11,149 bases of DNA from a virus. Shown here piece by piece: positions 1 to 10,911 of the stretch (positions within the stretch are counted from its first letter, which is position 1; every line of letters begins with the position of its first letter). A model generated the notes under the pieces. That model saw only the letters and a program-made list of their open reading frames with translations. It had not been told where the DNA came from and searched no databases. A program made the position numbers and the translations under genes. The stretch is taken from the UHGV virus genome UHGV-0098625. One strand, given 5' to 3'.

Positions 1-203
1 ATGGGGCCAACGCAGCCAAATGTGGAGTCAGACCATTTGGCATGCTCGTGGCGAACCCGCTCGCGTTCCAGTGAGGCGAGAGCGATTTTAAATGCTGTAA
101 GCATGTGTGCTTGATCGTTGTCGAGTCCGAATGGCATTTCATCTCGTGCTGACTCAATACTGGTAATCGTATTTTGTAGCCATTCCATGGTAAAAGTGCT
201 CAT
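1..203 (-). CDS. hypothetical protein, partial (3' end lies beyond the window start)
   Basis: ATG at 203..201 on the minus strand overlaps the stop of the upstream gene (ATGA). Hand translation gives MSTFTMEWLQNTITSIESARDEMPFGLDNDQAHMLTAFKIALASLERERVRHEHAKWSDSTFGCVGP with no stop before position 1. Not in the ORF track because it runs off the edge. Confidence 0.45.
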   Translation of the reverse strand, partial: MSTFTMEWLQNTITSIESARDEMPFGLDNDQAHMLTAFKIALASLERERVRHEHAKWSDSTFGCVGP

Positions 204-571
204 CGTAAAATATCCTCTATACTGGTAAGCCCTTCATTATTTAGCCAGATCATTGCGTCATCCGGCAACTTGCTGTCTGGTTTTGCGTTTTTGAGAGAGG
301 AACTCAGTCGCTTAATCCACATTGTCAGCTCAGTAATGCGCCTGTGTTTGCCTTCCAGCTCAACGCGCAGCCTCCCTACCGTTAGTGCAATATCCTCGTT
401 CTCCTTGTCGCGGCGTTTGACGTATTGCTGGTTTCTTTCCCGTTCATCCAGCAGTGCCAGCACAATCGATGGTGTTACCAGCTCATGGAAAAGGTCCGCG
501 TCAAATCCCCAGTTGTCATGCATTGCCTGCTCTGCCGCTTCACGCAGTGCCTGAGAGTTAATTTCGCTCAC
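200..571 (-). CDS. Ea22-like early-left region protein (123 aa)
   Basis: ORF track 200..571. The N-terminus MSEINSQALREAAEQAMHD.WGFDADLFHELVTPSIVL matches the ead/Ea22-like family as I recall it; the C-terminal half differs. The start codon is GTG (cac at 569..571), overlapping the TGA of the upstream gene. Confidence 0.6.
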   Translation of the reverse strand: MSEINSQALREAAEQAMHDNWGFDADLFHELVTPSIVLALLDERERNQQYVKRRDKENEDIALTVGRLRVELEGKHRRITELTMWIKRLSSSLKNAKPDSKLPDDAMIWLNNEGLTSIEDILR

Positions 572-789
572 TTCGAACCTCTCTGTTTACTGATAAGCTC
601 CAGAACTTCCTGGCAACTTGCACAAGTCCGACAACCCTGAACGGCCAGGCGTCTTCGCTCATCTATGGGATCGCCACACTCACAACAATGAGTGGCAGAT
701 ACAGTCTGGTAGTTCAGACGACGCATTTTTATTGCTGTATTGCGCTGTAATTCTTCGATTTCTGATGCTGAATCAATGATGTCTGCCAT
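568..789 (-). CDS. DksA/TraR-family C4 zinc-finger protein (73 aa)
   Basis: ORF track 568..789. Contains C35-x2-C38-x17-C56-x2-C59, the TraR/DksA C4 zinc-finger spacing. GGAAG-type RBS upstream of the ATG at 789. Confidence 0.7.
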   Translation of the reverse strand: MADIIDSASEIEELQRNTAIKMRRLNYQTVSATHCCECGDPIDERRRLAVQGCRTCASCQEVLELISKQRGSK

Positions 790-842: not shown

Positions 843-865
843 ATAAAAAAGGAGCCTGTAGCTCC
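843..865 (-). terminator. putative intrinsic terminator after the 103-aa gene
   Basis: Plus-strand ggagc-ctgta-gctcc at 851..865; on the minus strand the hairpin is followed by a T-run (rc of taataaaaaa at 841..850). Short 5-6 bp stem. Confidence 0.45.
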
Positions 866-887
866 CTGATGATTTTGCTTTTCATGT

Positions 888-1199
888 TCACCGTTCCTTA
901 AAGACGCCGTTTAACATGCCGATCGCCAGGCTTAAATGAGTCGGTGTGAATCCCATCAGCGTTACCGTTTCGCGGTGCTTCTTCAGTACGCTACGGCAAA
1001 TGTCATCGACGTTTTTATCCGGAAACTGCTGTCTGGCTTTTTTGATTTCAGAATTAGCCTGACGGGCAATGCTGCGAAGGGCGTTTTCTTGCTGAGGTGT
1101 CACTGAACAAGCCCCATGTCGGCAAGCATAAGCACACAGAATATGAAGCCCGCTGCCAGAAAAATGCATTCCGTGGTTGTCATACCTGGTCTCTCTCAT
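888..1199 (-). CDS. hypothetical protein in the orf61 position of the lambda map (103 aa; alternative start at 1169 gives 93 aa)
   Basis: ORF track 888..1199. Starting at 1199 overlaps the stop of the orf63-like gene by 20 nt, whereas the internal ATG at 1169 would not. No family recognised. Confidence 0.55.
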   Translation of the reverse strand: MRETRYDNHGMHFSGSGLHILCAYACRHGACSVTPQQENALRSIARQANSEIKKARQQFPDKNVDDICRSVLKKHRETVTLMGFTPTHLSLAIGMLNGVFKER

Positions 1200-1371: not shown

Positions 1372-1532
1372 ACCGCCTCCCGTTTATTATTTATCTTCTC
1401 AGCCAGCCGCTGTGCTTTCAGGGGATTTCGGATAACAGAAAGGCCGGGAAATACCCAGCCTCGCTTTGTAACGGAGTAGACGAAAGTGATCGCGCCTACC
1501 CGGATATTATCGTGAGGATGCTTCATCGCCAT
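1344..1532 (-). CDS. lambda orf60a-like protein (62 aa)
   Basis: ORF track. [60 protein letters not shown] matches lambda orf60a from memory; overlaps the exo stop. Confidence 0.8.
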
Positions 1533-2203
1533 TGCTCCCCAAATACAAAACCAATTTCAGCCAGTGCCTCGTCCATTTTTTCGATGAACTCCGGCACCAT
1601 CTCGTCAAAACTCGCCATGTACTTTTCATCCCGCTCAACCACGACATAATGCAGTCCTTCACGCTTCATACGCGGGTCATAGTTGGCAAAGTACCAGGCA
1701 TCTTTTCGCGTCACCCACATGCTGTACTGCACCTGGGCCATGTAAGCCGACTTTATGGCCTCGAAACCACCGAGCCGGAACTTCATGAAATCCCGGGAGG
1801 TAAACGGGCATTTCAGCTCAAGGCCATTGCCGTCACTGCATAAACCATCGGGAGAGCAGGCGGTGCGCATACTTTCGTCGCGATAGATGATCGGGGATTC
1901 AGTAACATTCACGCCGGAAGTAAACTCAAACAGGGCTCTGGCGTCGTTCTCGTACTGTTTTCCCCAGGCCAGCGCCTTAGCGTTAACTTCCGGAGCCACA
2001 CCGGTGCAAACCTCAGCAAGCAGGGTGTGGAAGTAGGACATTTTCATGTCAGGCCATTTCTTTCCGGAGCGGGGTTTTGCTATCACGTTGTGAACTTCTG
2101 AAGCGGTGATGACGCCGAGCCGTAATTTGTGCCATGCATCATCCCCCTGTTCGACAGCTCTCACGTCGATCCCGGTACGCTGCAGGATAATGTCCGGTGT
2201 CAT
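1523..2203 (-). CDS. exo: lambda exonuclease (Red-alpha), 226 aa
   Basis: ORF track. [69 protein letters not shown]... is essentially lambda Exo. ATGA overlap with the bet stop at 2200..2203. Confidence 0.97.
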
Positions 2204-3506: not shown

Positions 3507-3639
3507 TTTTTGGGACTCCTGGCTGATTAAGTATGTCGATAAGGCGTTTCCATCCGTCACGTAATTTACGGGTGATTCGTTCAAGTAAAGATTCGGAAGG
3601 GCAGCCAGCAACAGGCCACCCTGCAATGGCATATTGCAT
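3475..3639 (-). CDS. cIII: CIII, FtsH protease inhibitor that stabilises CII, 54 aa
   Basis: Absent from the ORF track (too short). Hand translation from the ATG at 3639 gives [54 protein letters not shown], stop at 3475..3477, AGGAG RBS upstream. Matches lambda CIII and overlaps the kil start in another frame, as in lambda. Confidence 0.9.
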   Translation of the reverse strand: MQYAIAGWPVAGCPSESLLERITRKLRDGWKRLIDILNQPGVPKNGSNNYGYPD

Positions 3640-3711
3640 GGTGTGCTCCTTATTTATACATAACGAAAAACGCCTCGAGTGAAGCGTAATTGGTATGCGG
3701 TAACGCCGCGC

Positions 3712-4080
3712 TCAGGCGGCCTTGATAGTCATATCATCTGAATCAAATATTCCTGATGTATCGATATCGGTAATTCTTATTCCTTCACTACCATCCATTG
3801 GAGGCCATCCTTCCTGACCATTTCCATCATTCCAGTCGAACTCACACACAACACCATATGCATTTAAGTCGCTTGAAATTGCTATAAGCAGAGCATGTTG
3901 CGCCAGCATGATTAATACAGCATTTAATACAGAGCCGTGTTTATTGAGTCGGTATTCAGAGTCTGACCAGAAATTATTAATCTGGTGAAGTTTTTCCTCT
4001 GTCATTACGTCATGGTCAATTTCAATTTCTATTGATGCTTTCCAGTCGTAATCAATGATGTATTTTTTGATGTTTGACAT
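3712..4080 (-). CDS. ea10: Ea10-like protein (lambda ea10/ssb position), 122 aa
   Basis: ORF track. Size, position between cIII and the N-proximal insert, and sequence (MSNIKKYIIDYDWKASIEIEIDHDVMTEEKLHQINNFWSDSEY...) fit lambda Ea10 as I recall it. GAGGAT RBS upstream of the ATG at 4080. Confidence 0.8.
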   Translation of the reverse strand: MSNIKKYIIDYDWKASIEIEIDHDVMTEEKLHQINNFWSDSEYRLNKHGSVLNAVLIMLAQHALLIAISSDLNAYGVVCEFDWNDGNGQEGWPPMDGSEGIRITDIDTSGIFDSDDMTIKAA

Positions 4081-4100
4081 CTATTCATATCCTCATAGAT

Positions 4101-4126
4101 AAAAAATCGCCCTCACACTGGAGGGC
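4101..4126 (-). terminator. intrinsic terminator in the pL operon (tL2-like), just upstream of ea10
   Basis: Plus-strand gccctc-acactg-gagggc at 4109..4126 preceded by aaaaaatc at 4101..4108. On the minus strand this is a GC-rich 6-bp stem followed by GATTTTTTAT. Confidence 0.55.
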
Positions 4127-4232
4127 AAAGAAGATTTCCAATAATCAGAACAAGTCGGCTCCTGTTTAGTTACGAGCGACATTGCTCAGTGTATTCACTC
4201 GTTGGAATGAATACACAGTGCTTATTCGCAGC

Positions 4233-4559
4233 CTACATAATCATTCCGGTTATTATTACCATTTCAATATCACTATCTTTCATAATGATTGGAGTTGAGT
4301 TATCAACTTTACTTTTACTCCATTTTCCTGCATCAGTTTTTACCGCTCCACAATAAGAAAGCCAATCATCATCACAATGTTCTGGAACACTAATTCTGAC
4401 AAGAACTCGTGATAGTGCTTTTTCGATACTTTCATCGCAATTAGCATTTGTGTAATTGCCGTGAGACAATTTCAAATCGTTAACTTCATCTTCATTGGCA
4501 TCAAAAATATAGATTTCAGTCGACTCTGGAACATTTTCATAAACCATTAAAACTTTCAT
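4233..4559 (-). CDS. hypothetical acidic protein, 108 aa (the track's 129-aa ORF begins at an upstream ATG at 4622)
   Basis: ORF track 4233..4622. Preferred start is the ATG at 4559 (MKVLMVYENVPESTEIY...), with GGGG 5 nt upstream and no overlap with the preceding gene. Rich in D/E; AT-rich DNA. No family recognised. Confidence 0.55.
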   Translation of the reverse strand: MKVLMVYENVPESTEIYIFDANEDEVNDLKLSHGNYTNANCDESIEKALSRVLVRISVPEHCDDDWLSYCGAVKTDAGKWSKSKVDNSTPIIMKDSDIEMVIITGMIM

Positions 4560-4606
4560 TTTTACCCCATATTGTTTATGCCAAAAATAAAGGCCGACTA
4601 TGCGTC

Positions 4607-5077
4607 CTAGTAGAATACCCAATTTTCTGTTTCTTGGTTGTGTCCAAAGTTATATTCAATATCTGGTGTTGATGTATCAATATTCTTCATCCCATCAACA
4701 AGAGTTGATACAACAGCCAAATCTTGTTTGATTCTCATTAAATGGTATTTCTTCCGGCGCAATAAACTTTCAATGGCAAGTTTCTTCGTTGGGAATGCAA
4801 AAGATCTTTCTGCATTTTTTGCTACTTTCTTAATTGCATATCTATTTCTCCTTTGTTTCCATTCCTGTAACCACTGATTTGGTACTGGTTTAAAATTAAC
4901 AATCCAATGCGCAGGAACCAACCATGCATAATGGTCTGTCTGATGAAAAGCTATATATTGAAGTGCGAATATTTTTATCCCATCTTCTTCAACTGTCGCC
5001 TGGAATCTCCAGAAAACAGGCATTCCATCATGTTCAGTTTCTGATTCAGGAAAAGGTACGCTCCATGATTTTGTCAT
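4607..5077 (-). CDS. hypothetical protein, 156 aa (basic C-terminal half)
   Basis: ORF track. GAGGTGA RBS immediately upstream of the ATG at 5077. AT-rich DNA. No family recognised. Confidence 0.6.
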   Translation of the reverse strand: MTKSWSVPFPESETEHDGMPVFWRFQATVEEDGIKIFALQYIAFHQTDHYAWLVPAHWIVNFKPVPNQWLQEWKQRRNRYAIKKVAKNAERSFAFPTKKLAIESLLRRKKYHLMRIKQDLAVVSTLVDGMKNIDTSTPDIEYNFGHNQETENWVFY

Positions 5078-5277: not shown

Positions 5278-5610
5278 TCAATCGTAATAAGCTGGAATTG
5301 ATTTTCCGCGTTGCTTCTGGCGGCCTGAGCAAGTCACACCCATTTCACTGCGTGGCTTGCTGTACCATGTGCGCTGATTCTTGCGCTCAATACGCTGCAG
5401 GTTGCTTTCAATCTGTTCGTGGTATTCAGCCAGCACTGTAAGGTCTATCGGATTCAGTGCGCTTTCTACTCGTGATTTCGGTTTGCGATTCAGCGAGAGA
5501 ATAGGGCGGTTAACTGGTTTTGCGCTTACCCCAACCAACAGGGGATTTGCTGCTTTCCATTGAGCCTGTTTCTCTGCGCGACGTTCGCGGCGGCGTGTTT
5601 GTGCATCCAT
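5278..5610 (-). CDS. N: antitermination protein N, 110 aa
   Basis: ORF track. MDAQTRRRERRAEKQAQWKAANPLLVGVSAKPVNRPILSLNRKPKSRVESALNPIDLTVLAEYH.QIESNLQRIERKNQRTWYSKP matches lambda N (arginine-rich N-terminal motif); the C-terminal roughly 25 residues diverge. AGGAG RBS upstream of the ATG at 5610. Confidence 0.93.
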   Translation of the reverse strand: MDAQTRRRERRAEKQAQWKAANPLLVGVSAKPVNRPILSLNRKPKSRVESALNPIDLTVLAEYHEQIESNLQRIERKNQRTWYSKPRSEMGVTCSGRQKQRGKSIPAYYD

Positions 5611-5808: not shown

Positions 5809-5839
5809 ACCCTTCTTCAGGGCTTAATTTTTAAGAGCG
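5809..5839 (-). promoter_or_regulatory. nutL (boxA + boxB) N-utilisation site
   Basis: Minus strand reads CGCTCTTAAAAATTAA (boxA, 5839..5824) followed by GCCCTGAAGAAGGGT (boxB, 5823..5809). Matches lambda nutL except the last boxB base, which gives a G-U closing pair. Confidence 0.85.
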
Positions 5840-5878: not shown

Positions 5879-5941
5879 AGTATCACCGCCAGTGGTATTT
5901 ATGTCAACACCGCCAGAGATAATTTATCACCGCAGATGGTT
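5879..5941 (-). promoter_or_regulatory. pL promoter with operators OL1, OL2, OL3
   Basis: OL1 tatcaccgccagtggta 5881..5897, OL2 caacaccgccagagata 5905..5921 and OL3 tatcaccgcagatggtt 5925..5941 are identical to lambda OL sites as recalled. Minus-strand -35 TTGACA (5907..5902) and -10 GATACT (5884..5879) with 17-bp spacing. Confidence 0.9.
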
Positions 5942-6090: not shown

Positions 6091-6120
6091 GCAAAGAAAA
6101 CCCGGCGCAGATGCCGGGTT
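6091..6120 (-). terminator. intrinsic terminator downstream of the rex-slot gene (timm-like)
   Basis: Minus-strand RNA AACCCGGC-AUCUGC-GCCGGGUU followed by UUCUUUG. On the plus strand the same hairpin is followed by GUGGUGG, so it is unidirectional. Confidence 0.7.
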
Positions 6121-6130
6121 GTGGTGGAGA

Positions 6131-7036
6131 TCAATGCTTATTTGGGAGTGCTGGTTTTTTTATCGACTCTAATAGCTCGGAGGCGTTACTAATCTTTTTG
6201 TTCCCAAGGTAATTTGGCAGTTTTTCCATTGCGTAATTATCGTGTAGCCATTTTCTGAACACGCCAAGTGCCTCAATAGGATAAATCCAAGCTGTTATAT
6301 GCTTATTTGCAGCTGACTGCCTGTAATTTTCGGGGAATAAATGTGGGTACTGCACCCTTTCCCCGAATTTCTCAGATAGCCCATTAGCTGTCCAATACTT
6401 TCCCCAGTGAATTCCAACACTTCCATCCAAAGATGTGGTGTCATCCATTGGGAATCCTCCTCCGATCAGGTTCATGGCAATGTCAGCTATCTCTCTGAAT
6501 ACTGCAAAATGAGTTGTCGGTATCTGATCGTTTAGCTTAATCCTTGCTCTATAGTTCTCGAATGAGATATCTATTGAAGCATTTGGGTTGTAATTTGACT
6601 TTTCATAAATCATTCGCTTAAGCGTGTACTCAGCCAAGCGAACAAAATTACCTATTGCGACTGACCTATCAAAATTGGTGGCATCTAGAGCGTAGTAACG
6701 GAGGATAGCCATGCAAACATAGTCAGGATAAGCATGAGTTTCCACGTTTGAGCTATTTAAAACGCGAGTGTATAGCTTTTCGACGTTATGAAACCCTTTC
6801 TCAGCTAAATACGCAGCTACTTTTTGACCTCTGGGTTTGTTTTTCTCTGTGTTCCAGTTTGATGTGAACACCCTCAGTGGCGTGTCATCAATGCCGCATA
6901 ACTTTGCGAGACCGTAGAGAGTTAGGTAAGGAGTTCCATCATTGAGAACGCCCATAGGAATATCATCAGAAACAACCTCTACTACAGGGAAAAGCTGCAT
7001 TTGATGCAGGGATTCGCTATTGCTGTTAATCGACAT
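6131..7036 (-). CDS. hypothetical 301-aa protein in the rexA/rexB position; candidate phage-exclusion / abortive-infection protein
   Basis: ORF track. ATG at 7036 with AAGGAAA RBS; lies 86 nt downstream of the cI stop on the same strand and is followed by the terminator at 6091..6120. AT-rich relative to cI, N and exo/bet. The N-terminal segment (LFPVVEVVSDDIPMGVLNDGTPYLTLYGLAKLCGID) resembles KilA-N/Bro-N-type domains by eye. Function inferred from position only. Confidence 0.85.
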   Translation of the reverse strand: MSINSNSESLHQMQLFPVVEVVSDDIPMGVLNDGTPYLTLYGLAKLCGIDDTPLRVFTSNWNTEKNKPRGQKVAAYLAEKGFHNVEKLYTRVLNSSNVETHAYPDYVCMAILRYYALDATNFDRSVAIGNFVRLAEYTLKRMIYEKSNYNPNASIDISFENYRARIKLNDQIPTTHFAVFREIADIAMNLIGGGFPMDDTTSLDGSVGIHWGKYWTANGLSEKFGERVQYPHLFPENYRQSAANKHITAWIYPIEALGVFRKWLHDNYAMEKLPNYLGNKKISNASELLESIKKPALPNKH

Positions 7037-7122: not shown

Positions 7123-7839
<717 letters not shown>

Positions 7840-8144: not shown

Positions 8145-8176
8145 CGCTCTTACACATTCCAGCCCTGAAAAAGGGC
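8145..8176 (+). promoter_or_regulatory. nutR (boxA + boxB)
   Basis: cgctctta at 8145..8152, spacer cacattcca, then boxB gccctgaaaaagggc at 8162..8176 (5-bp stem, GAAAA loop). Matches lambda nutR. Confidence 0.88.
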
Positions 8177-8255: not shown

Positions 8256-8534
8256 ATGCAACTTACAAGTACTCGCAAGAAAGCGAATGCAATTACAAGC
8301 AACATCCTGAATCGAATTGCTGTACGTGGTCAGCGAAAGGTTGCCGACGCGTTAGGGATTAATGAATCGCAAATTTCGCGATGGAAAGACAGCTTCATCC
8401 CAAAAATGGGAATGCTTCTGGCTGTTCTTGAATGGGGTGTTGAAGACGAGGAGTTGGCGGAACTGGCTAAGCAAGTAGCCAGAATGCTGACAAAAGAAAA
8501 AGCCCCGAAGAACGGCGAATTCTTCGAGGCCTGA
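8256..8534 (+). CDS. cII: CII-like transcriptional activator, 92 aa (not the lambda allele)
   Basis: Track ORF 8196..8534; preferred start is the ATG at 8256 with AAGGA RBS, at the position of the lambda cII start. The conserved core SQISRWK...IPK..MLLAVLEWGV matches the CII family; the N- and C-termini differ from lambda CII. Confidence 0.8.
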   Translation: MQLTSTRKKANAITSNILNRIAVRGQRKVADALGINESQISRWKDSFIPKMGMLLAVLEWGVEDEELAELAKQVARMLTKEKAPKNGEFFEA

Positions 8535-8568
8535 TGTAGAAAGACTGGATCAATCCACAGGAGTAATT

Positions 8569-8730
8569 ATGACAAAACGTCGTAAGAAATACCAGGAAAA
8601 AGAAGAGATTCGACACCCTGATTCACCTGAGGGATTAGTGGTAGCCGCAGCAAATAACAGGGCGTTCGCAGAACGCCTTGTTGGTGTTTACAGACTAGCC
8701 AAAGCAGGAGTGAAACATGGGCGTCGTTAA
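8569..8730 (+). CDS. putative small basic protein, 53 aa
   Basis: Absent from the ORF track. ATG at 8569 with AGGAG 7 nt upstream. Hand translation: [53 protein letters not shown], stop at 8728..8730. Overlaps the O start by 14 nt in another frame. Confidence 0.3.
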   Translation: MTKRRKKYQEKEEIRHPDSPEGLVVAAANNRAFAERLVGVYRLAKAGVKHGRR

Positions 8731-9538
8731 GTTAGCTGATTACAGGCCTCAACTGGAGGTCGTGGAGCATCGCGTGGCAGATACCGAAGATGGTTTCATG
8801 CGCGTTGCTAACGAGATTACCGACAGTCTGCTGATGGCTGATTTAACCGTCCGGCAGTTGAAGGTGATGCTCGCTATCATGCGCAAGACATACGGATTCA
8901 ATAAGCCGATGGATCGACTCACAAACACGCAGATAGCAGCCATGACAGGTATTCATCACACTCATGTTTGCGCTGCCAAGCGCCAGCTTATTGAGCGTAA
9001 ATTCCTCATTGCTGATGGCGTGAAAATCGGAGTGAACAAGGTGGTTTCTCAGTGGATTAGCCAGGACAGCTTAACATTAGCTAAAACAGCTAATAAAACA
9101 TTAGCCAAGTCGGCTAATGGGTATAAGCCAAGTCAGCTAAACACAAAAGACAATATACAAAAGACAATAAATACAAATACCCCCTTACCCCCTAACGGGG
9201 GCGGCGATGGGCAGGTTAAACCTGAACGTCGCAAGGCAGAACGAATCGACTACGAATCCTTCCTGAACGCCTACAACACCGAAGTCGGTGACAGACTTCC
9301 ACACGCTGTTGCGGTCAACGAGAAACGAAAACGCCGCCTGAAGAAAATCATCCCGCAACTGAAAACGCCAAACGTGGACGGTTTCAGAGCGTATGTCAGG
9401 GCGTTTGTGCATCAGGCCAAGCCGTTTTACTTCGGAGACAACGACACGGGCTGGACGGCTGATTTTGATTACCTGCTGAGAGAAGATTCGTTAACGGGAG
9501 TTCGTGAAGGGAAGTTTGCAGACAGGGGGATTGCATGA
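8717..9538 (+). CDS. O: replication initiator, O family, 273 aa
   Basis: ORF track. AGGAG RBS. The N-terminal region ([32 protein letters not shown]) resembles the lambda O N-terminal DNA-binding domain (lambda: LTKRQFKVLLAILRKTYGWNKPMDRITDSQL). Origin-like iterons lie inside the gene. Stop overlaps the helicase start (ATGA). Confidence 0.85.
9057..9180. other. putative replication origin inside O: four iterons plus an AT-rich tract
   Basis: Iterons ttagccaggacagcttaa 9057..9074, ttagctaaaacagctaa 9077..9093, ttagccaagtcggctaa 9101..9117, taagccaagtcagctaa 9124..9140 (each an internal inverted repeat, about 23-bp period), then the A/T-rich 9141..9180 (acacaaaagacaatatacaaaagacaataaatacaaatac). 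Confidence 0.75.
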
Positions 9539-10911
9539 AACAGGATATCGAAGCGAGCGTTATCGGTGGCCTGCTGATTGGTGGATTAACACCAACTGCC
9601 AGTGACGTTCTGGCAACGCTTGAGCCGGAAGCGTTTTCAATTCCGCTCTACCGGAAAGCCTTCGAGGTTATCCGCAAGCAGGCGCGAAACAGAAATTTAA
9701 TCGACGCGCTGATGGTCGCCGAGGCGTGCGGAGAGGAGCATTTCACGTCAATCCTGATGACCAGCAAAAACTGCCCGAGTGCCGCAAACCTGAAGGGATA
9801 TGCCGGAATGGTCGCGGATAACTATCACCGCCGTCTGGTGCTGGAAATCATGGATGAAATGCGTGAACCAATTCAGAGCGGAACCATCGACGCATCGAGT
9901 CAGGCGATGGATGAGCTTGTAAAGCGTCTTTCAGCCATCAGAAAGCCCCGTGACGAGGTTAAACCTGTACGGTTAGGGGAAATCATCACCGACTACACTG
10001 ACACGCTTGACAGGCGTCTGAGGAACGGAGAAGAGTCAGATACCCTGAAGACCGGAATCGAAGAACTTGATGCCATCACCGGAGGGATGAACGCGGAAGA
10101 CCTGGTGATAATCGCTGCTCGTCCTGGTATGGGGAAAACCGAACTGGCGCTGAAGATTGCCGAAGGCGTTGCAAGCCGCGTTATTCCTGGTTCTGACGTC
10201 CGGCGCGGGGTATTGATTTTCTCAATGGAAATGAGCGCATTGCAGATTGCAGAGCGAAGCATTGCCAACGCCGGGAGGATGTCGGTTAGCGTACTGCGAA
10301 ATCCTGCATCGATGGATGACGAGGGCTGGGCACGTGTTGCTAACGGCATGAGTCAGCTTGCAGATTTGGATGTATGGGTAGTCGATGCCTCGCGGTTATC
10401 GGTCGAAGAAATTCGCTCAATCGCAGAACGGCACAAACAGGAAAATCCAAACCTGTCACTCATCATGGCGGATTATCTTGGCCTGATTGAGAAGCCGAAA
10501 GCAGACCGCAACGACCTCGCAATTGCTCACATCTCAGGAAGCCTGAAGGCGATGGCGAAAGACCTGAAAACGCCTGTTATCTCCCTAAGTCAACTTTCGC
10601 GCGATGTTGAGAAGCGACCAAACAAACGCCCGACAAACGCAGATTTGCGTGATTCAGGAAGCATTGAACAGGACGCAGACTCAATCATCATGCTCTATCG
10701 GGAAGCGGTATATGACGAGAACAGTAGCGCCGCGCCATTTGCTGAAATCATCGTGACGAAAAACCGTTTTGGCTCACTTGGTACGGTTTACCAGCGGTTC
10801 TGCAACGGACACTTTGTTGCATGTGACCAGGATGAAGCCAGACAGATTTGCACAGCATCAAATGCACCTGCTGCTCGTGGCAGACGATATGCACAAGGGG
10901 CTGACGTATGA
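9535..10911 (+). CDS. DnaB-family replicative helicase, 458 aa (takes the place of lambda P)
   Basis: ORF track. Walker [17 protein letters not shown], Walker B-like LIMADYLGL, and the IISLSQLSR and [14 protein letters not shown] motifs typical of DnaB-type helicases. Size and position match the P22 gene 12-type helicase. Confidence 0.9.

Follow-up and report, generated by a model that had tools for sequence, protein, structure and literature searches.

A lambda orf73 orthologue, predicted to encode an early TraR-like regulator of RNA polymerase, in a mosaic lambda-immunity phage

The open reading frame at positions 568..789 on the minus strand of the window (i.e. the whole stretch of DNA analysed, 11,149 nucleotides of the virus genome UHGV-0098625) is very probably the orf73 gene of a mosaic lambda-immunity phage or prophage, encoding a TraR-like regulator of RNA polymerase that is expressed early from pL. 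The assignment of its 73-residue product, a C4 zinc-finger protein, as the orthologue of lambda Orf73, within the TraR branch of the DksA/TraR family, is based on the reading frame, on Pfam and PHROG 54 matches, on identity with the lambda protein, on the conservation of individual residues and on dN/dS. The initial annotation missed that the gene is lambda's orf73 and has already been characterised; for lambda, the gene, its family and its mechanism are in the literature, and existing annotation pipelines name the gene correctly. The value of the present results lies in a correct annotation, one which also identifies the window as the early-left region of a mosaic prophage with lambda immunity.

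The reading frame is intact, comprising 73 codons, and its ATG is the first possible start codon in the ORF list. Its product, MADIIDSASEIEELQRNTAIKMRRLNYQTVSATHCCECGDPIDERRRLAVQGCRTCASCQEVLELISKQRGSK, has the cysteine spacing C35-x2-C38-x17-C56-x2-C59, and both the ORF list and a count of residues agree with the initial annotation in giving a protein of 73 residues with an exact C-x2-C-x17-C-x2-C signature. On alignment the zinc ligands, C35, C38, C56 and C59, pair with C37, C40, C58 and C61 of TraR; two more cysteines, C36 and C53, are present. The Pfam profile PF01258 (zf-dskA_traR) matches residues 33-64, corresponding to profile positions 4-35 of 36, with 36.9 bits (E 3.6e-09) against a gathering score of 24.9, and PHROG 54, 'DksA-like zinc-finger protein', matches residues 1-71 (E 6.5e-26). 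With chance excluded by these scores, the cysteine signature is, at the level of sequence, to be regarded as a real family motif, and the profile result bears out the membership of the TraR/DksA family that had been claimed.

The NCBIfam model TIGR02419 (C4_traR_proteo, 'phage/conjugal plasmid C-4 type zinc finger protein, TraR family') aligns with residues 3-64 over all 64 of its 64 positions, with a score of 56.2 bits relative to a cut-off of 59.7. Lambda Orf73 scores 54.7 bits with the same model, the copy in phage BP-4795 54.9 and F-plasmid TraR 81.0; thus, the whole Orf73 clade, including a proven member, lies just under the cut-off and the shortfall does not set the window protein apart. 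The significant matches among solved structures were only to E. coli YbiI (2kgo) and to F-plasmid TraR (5w1s, 6n57 and related RNA polymerase complexes), with the TraR match spanning residues 1-64 of the window protein. A single-sequence AlphaFold2 model was poor (pLDDT 57.6, pTM 0.26), with helices at residues 5-30 and 57-70 and short strands between them; the layout of helices and strands in this weak model, together with the length of 73 residues, appears compatible with TraR. The published AlphaFold model of lambda Orf73 is TraR-like, with a pLDDT of 93 (PMC8614690).

DksA proper was considered and rejected, the window protein being half the length of DksA and not matching the NCBIfam DksA model, NF033459, at E <= 0.01. 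The 73-residue protein had no defence-system match in PADLOC, and no Rfam family reached its gathering threshold at 568-789 on either strand. That a small C4 zinc-finger protein is encoded within a regulatory region, and that some database records name its homologs 'transcriptional regulator', could be taken to indicate a sequence-specific DNA-binding regulator of phage promoters. We give this reading a close to negligible probability: no other zinc-finger family competes in the Pfam, PHROG, NCBIfam and PDB searches, DksA/TraR being the sole family matched, and the lambda lytic promoters that have been tested are unaffected by lambda Orf73 (PMC9239242). According to the same source, TraR and DksA work without DNA binding (PMC9239242).

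A role as a TraR-like regulator of RNA polymerase is consistent with the pattern of conservation. The window protein and lambda Orf73 are of equal length and are identical at 68 of 73 residues (93%), without gaps, the differences in the window allele relative to lambda being H27Y, A29T, I30V, V49A and D62V; they have in common the DxxDxA motif, the C4 site, the ExxRL motif, E64 and the extra cysteines C36 and C53. We aligned 13 sequences, i.e. the window protein, lambda Orf73, four further lambdoid copies, homologs from other phages (of Klebsiella, Yersinia, Mannheimia and Vibrio, orf39 of Pseudomonas phiCTX and a virulent Escherichia phage, an Enterobacter phage also being represented) and residues 1-66 of F TraR. 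D6, A8, C35, C38, I42, E44, R46, C56, C59 and E64 are invariant in this alignment, and D3, S31, G39, R47, G52 and Q60 nearly so, with all five of the substitutions relative to lambda falling at variable positions. The DxxDxA motif of the window protein is D3-I-I-D6-S-A8 and its arginine-pair region, corresponding to the ExxRK/L motif, is E44-R45-R46-R47-L48, in which R46 and R47 correspond to TraR R48 and R49; E64 aligns with TraR E66. Published work assigns each of these motifs a place on RNA polymerase: DxxDxA reaches the active-site region, the arginine pair (TraR R48/R49) touches beta-prime Si3 and the rim helices, and beta Si1 is contacted by the acidic residue in the C-terminal helix (PMC9239242, PMC8614690). 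As judged from the alignment, every residue tied to function is retained in the window protein, including D3, D6 and A8, the four zinc cysteines, R46 and R47, E64, and C36 and C53.

Pairwise Nei-Gojobori comparisons with the copies in lambda, BP-4795 and Stx1_112808 gave dN/dS values of 0.04-0.17, with dS of up to 0.64, which implies that the minus-strand orf73 frame is under purifying selection. The antisense open reading frames at 618..779 (+) and 425..640 (+) were considered and are unsupported, the pattern of synonymous and nonsynonymous change fitting the minus-strand frame.

The surroundings of the gene agree with its proposed placement in an early-left operon. The pL hexamers, TTGACA-17-GATACT, are as in lambda and lie at 5907..5879 (-); the operators oL1 (5881-5896) and oL3 (5925-5940) are exact lambda matches, so that a pattern scan and the lambda operator layout together define a promoter and operator region at 5879..5940 (-). 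A motif search located the nutL boxB, GCCCTGAAGAAGGGT, at 5809..5823 (-) with one mismatch to the lambda consensus. The mismatch is in the final base, T compared with C in lambda, which turns the closing G-C pair of the stem into G-U; the nutR boxB at 8162-8176 is the canonical GCCCTGAAAAAGGGC. All of the genes recognised from pL to orf73, i.e. N, cIII, kil, gam, bet, exo, orf60a, orf63 and orf61, are on the minus strand. The first gene of the operon, a 110-residue open reading frame at 5278..5610 (-), we take to be N, its identity being read from the translation rather than from a tool comparison with lambda N; its placement relative to nutL and pL is as in lambda. Likewise, the 237-residue open reading frame at 7123..7836 (-), flanked by lambda-type operators, is presumably a lambda-type cI repressor, as read from its translation, and the region matching it in related Stx phages is annotated as cI repressor.

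Within the exo-xis block the order is exo, orf60a (DUF1317), orf63 (DUF1382), orf61, orf73 and ea22 (Pfam Ead_Ea22). In lambda, orf73 occupies the same slot between orf61 and ea22, at 30392-30613 on the complement (1716..1937 (-) in the coordinates of the lambda sequence L001), where the reading frame is present though NC_001416 leaves it unannotated; the lambda reference has no annotation at all in the interval from ea22 to orf61. Immediately downstream of orf73 in the window is an ea22-like gene of 123 residues at 200..571 (-), identified as an open reading frame with a match to Pfam Ead_Ea22 (E 8.6e-21), the lambda ea22 product being longer, at 182 residues, than this mosaic form. The GTG start of ea22 and the stop of orf73 overlap as GTGA at 568-571, and the same overlap is found in lambda (L001 1716/1719), which suggests that ea22 may be translationally coupled to orf73.

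The upstream neighbour of orf73 is a full-length orf61 of 103 residues at 888..1199 (-), supported by its reading frame, by PHROG 303 (E 2.7e-42) and by alignment with lambda, in which orf61 has a truncated form of 61 residues. At L001 2036..2348 the 61-residue lambda orf61 is followed by an overlapping frame of 60 residues in another frame, and DNA alignment reveals one extra A in an A-run (A7 in lambda, A6 in the window) after ...SEIKK; the lambda reference copy of orf61 is therefore frameshifted. The truncation of lambda Orf61 had already been noted (PMC8614690). PGAP calls a shorter version of orf61, of 71 residues, in E. coli Br_167_kylling. At gathering thresholds the sole Rfam family in the whole window is RF01804, the lambda cIII thermoregulator element, at 3594-3652 (-) and 88.5 bits, located at the start of cIII.

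Two terminator-like hairpins lie within the pL operon, in the interval from exo to orf73. In the orf61-orf73 spacer, directly upstream of orf73, a pattern scan and folding of the spacer give a terminator-like hairpin with a T-run at 849..867 (-): read from 867 to 849, the stem GGGAGC/GCTCC is followed by TTTTTTATTATT, just upstream of the orf73 ribosome-binding region, and in the folded spacer RNA a U-run comes after a GGGAGC...GCUCC stem. Compared with lambda, the 111 bases preceding the orf73 start contain 4 changes, all of them outside the hairpin and the T-run. A second hairpin, also found by pattern scan, lies within the orf60a/orf63 overlap at 1440..1462 (-), and is identical to lambda at about 31265-31287; we take it to be lambda tL3. 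J02459 annotates no terminators along this stretch, and a literature search for named pL-operon terminators yielded no citable source and no name for the hairpin at 849..867; a literature match to 'TL3' was rejected as lambda tL3, being an unrelated synthetic terminator. Expression of orf73 probably depends on N-modified, termination-resistant transcription past the two hairpins.

As a whole the window is mosaic, with coverage by any one phage record going no higher than 60%, a value reached by Stx2a phages. Its first 2.3 kb are 96.6% identical at the DNA level to phage lambda, with homology beginning at window position 353, inside ea22, implying a mosaic recombination joint within that gene; the N-terminal part of the ea22 product corresponds to Pfam Ead_Ea22 and several PHROGs cover different segments of it. 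The interval between cIII and N, 3712..5077 (-), has three non-lambda open reading frames where lambda has ea10, ral and sieB: a DUF2528 protein of 122 residues (PHROG 646) and proteins of 129 (PHROG 4658) and 156 residues (PHROG 1636). Lambda ea10 is also listed as 122 residues, a likeness to the DUF2528 protein that is one of length alone; PADLOC gave no match for any of the three. A terminator-like hairpin is located in the same interval at 4128..4107.

Directly downstream of cI, in the position of lambda's rexA/rexB, a 301-residue open reading frame at 6131..7036 (-) encodes a BstA abortive-infection defence protein, as identified by PADLOC (BstA, E 1.3e-105) and by PHROG 6287 ('BstA abortive infection system, replication inhibitor', E 6e-133); Pfam gave no match for it. 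Self-immunity of the prophage is conferred by an anti-BstA (aba) DNA element located within BstA genes. A terminator-like hairpin lies beside this gene at 6120..6099 (-). To the right of cro, the module at 8256..10911 (+) differs from that of lambda and resembles Stx2a phages, with a different cII allele (PF05269) and a replication module composed of an O-like initiator of 273 residues (PF04492) and a DnaB-type replicative helicase of 458 residues in place of lambda P.

Such mosaicism, with coverage by the best phage record of no more than 60%, together with the fact that many E. coli prophages are defective, raises the question of whether orf73 is here an inert relic in a decaying prophage, with a reading frame that is intact but no longer used. 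We regard this as extremely unlikely given the low dN/dS and the dS range over which it holds, the retention of all functional residues, and the intact state of the pL operon, operators, cI, N and recombination genes around orf73. The gene region is, moreover, widely kept: three complete E. coli chromosomes carry the 401-base stretch centred on orf73 at 100% identity, and a homologous stretch was found in 3,323 of 5,426 complete E. coli genomes. The exact allele of the window is RefSeq WP_069903704.1, named by PGAP 'TraR/DksA family transcriptional regulator', the gene for which is in a lambda-like prophage adjoining ybhC in E. coli Br_167_kylling.

The function to be expected of an intact, pL-expressed Orf73 has been defined by biochemical and genetic work on the lambda protein. 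In the work of Gopalkrishnan et al. (mBio 2022, PMC9239242), purified lambda Orf73 and DksA competed for E. coli RNA polymerase and, without ppGpp, lambda Orf73 inhibited the rrnB P1 promoter, with a TraR-like IC50 of about 50 nM, and the r-protein promoter rpsT P2. The D3N or D6N substitution results in loss or impairment of activity and D3A/D6A impairs it too (PMC9239242). Expression of lambda Orf73 from pL slows host growth, and the phage yield of lysogens after mitomycin C is 3-4-fold lower when orf73 is deleted in frame or carries D3A/D6A (PMC9239242). That study also describes complementation of a dksA-null strain on minimal medium (PMC9239242). A model by Donaldson and colleagues places lambda Orf73 in the TraR site of RNA polymerase, and their list of hallmark motifs agrees with that given above (PMC8614690).

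Since the window protein is 93% identical to lambda Orf73 and keeps all of the mapped residues, the same mechanism is most likely to apply to it; extended to the window allele, the lambda mechanism would be by far the most likely one. The experiments on lambda Orf73 support the proposal in the initial annotation that a phage protein expressed from pL could reprogram host transcription via the secondary channel of RNA polymerase. The suggestion that its effects would be stringent-response-like stands with respect to inhibition but not with respect to activation, as activation by lambda Orf73 of thrABC, argI and rpoH P3 is weak, if it occurs at all (PMC9239242). The effect of lambda Orf73 would thus be mainly the negative half of the DksA/ppGpp response.

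In a lysogen of the phage, cI would keep pL, and hence orf73, silent. On inactivation of cI, transcription would start from pL and N, acting at nutL, would render it resistant to termination, such that the pL transcript would read through the recombination genes and the exo-xis block, with Orf73 being made early in lytic growth. The protein would act without binding DNA: its N-terminal helix is predicted to enter the secondary channel of RNA polymerase, where DxxDxA (D3, D6, A8) would reach the active-site region, while the zinc-ribbon globular domain (C35, C38, C56, C59; R46, R47) would dock against beta-prime Si3 and the rim helices, with contact to beta Si1 being made by the C-terminal helix (E64). 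Host resources would then be diverted from ribosome synthesis, with a several-fold rise in phage yield.

The sign of the orf73 phenotype is disputed. An earlier study, as reported in PMC9239242 and PMC8614690, found that orf73 lowers phage yield and is pro-lysogenic after infection; the later authors ascribe the discrepancy to differing methods of orf73 inactivation and of lytic induction, and consider that neither the point mutations nor the in-frame deletion which they used should be polar on downstream genes (PMC9239242). Earlier genetics also implicated lambda orf73, with ea22, ea8.5 and orf55, in inhibiting the initiation of host replication, and deletions in lambda and Stx phages lowered host survival and lysogenisation (cited in PMC9239242, PMC8614690). 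On such evidence the primary role of Orf73 might be that of 'bin', which directly blocks the initiation of replication of the host chromosome, or of a pro-lysogenic factor in the lysis-lysogeny decision. We consider a primary role of either type very unlikely. The effect on replication is regarded as indirect by the authors, via inhibition of rRNA promoters or changes in supercoiling (PMC9239242); the DxxDxA and arginine-pair residues retained in the window protein are RNA polymerase contacts; and, with the orf73 stop and the ea22 start overlapping, the earlier orf73 deletions may have had polar effects on ea22. A 'bin' or lysogeny role of Orf73 would be conceivable only if it followed secondarily from the regulation of RNA polymerase.

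Although the mechanism is most likely that of lambda Orf73, there is a slim chance that the five substitutions, notably V49A and D62V, or the two extra cysteines change which promoters respond. Of these two, V49A is in the globular domain and D62V in the C-terminal helix, both of which are RNA polymerase-contacting regions; at position 62 the Enterobacter phage copy also has V, and I and Y occur there in the Yersinia phage and TraR, respectively. The extra cysteines have been suggested by the authors as a possible explanation for the weak activation by lambda Orf73 (PMC9239242). Were the promoter range altered, the result might be, e.g., a restoration of the activation which lambda Orf73 lacks, or a redox-sensitive activity, and lambdoid and Stx prophages would then differ in their tuning of host takeover according to the orf73 allele that they naturally carry.

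Taken with the conserved residues, the analysis suggests that the prophage keeps an intact host-takeover factor, one that would shut down ribosome synthesis on induction. Given that in the Stx-converting relatives the exo-xis genes are tied to the efficiency of induction, allelic variation in orf73 could have modest applied interest. The Orf73 proteins of the Stx phages BP-4795, 2851, Stx2a_WGPS8 and SH2026Stx1 are 98.6% identical to the window protein, with ORF8 of BP-4795 differing at a single residue, E62 in place of V62, and the exo-xis synteny of the window is found in Stx-converting and other lambdoid phages (BP-4795, 2851, Stx2a_WGPS8, Phi24B, 933W).

TraR of the F plasmid (5W1S, 6N57) also has 73 residues and comprises a single helix, a zinc ribbon and a C-terminal helix, the layout predicted for the window protein. 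The two proteins have in common DxxDxA at residues 3-8, the CxxC-x17-CxxC arrangement, the arginine pair and the C-terminal glutamate, and TraR, like lambda Orf73, uses the DksA site of RNA polymerase and is independent of ppGpp. Despite these similarities, TraR is distant in sequence from the window protein (phmmer E about 1e-4), and the five homologs that have been tested were 32-49% identical to TraR (PMC9239242). TraR is without the two extra cysteines of the window protein; it activates thrABC, argI and rpoH P3, in contrast with lambda Orf73; and its gene is in a conjugative tra operon, whereas the window orf73 is in a phage pL operon. The PF01258 domain and an acidic tip motif are common to the window protein and to E. 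coli DksA and YbiI, and the predicted target of the window protein, the secondary channel of RNA polymerase, is also theirs. DksA is, however, approximately twice as long, carries its aspartates on the tip of a coiled coil, in place of which the window protein is predicted to have one N-terminal helix, and requires ppGpp for full activity.
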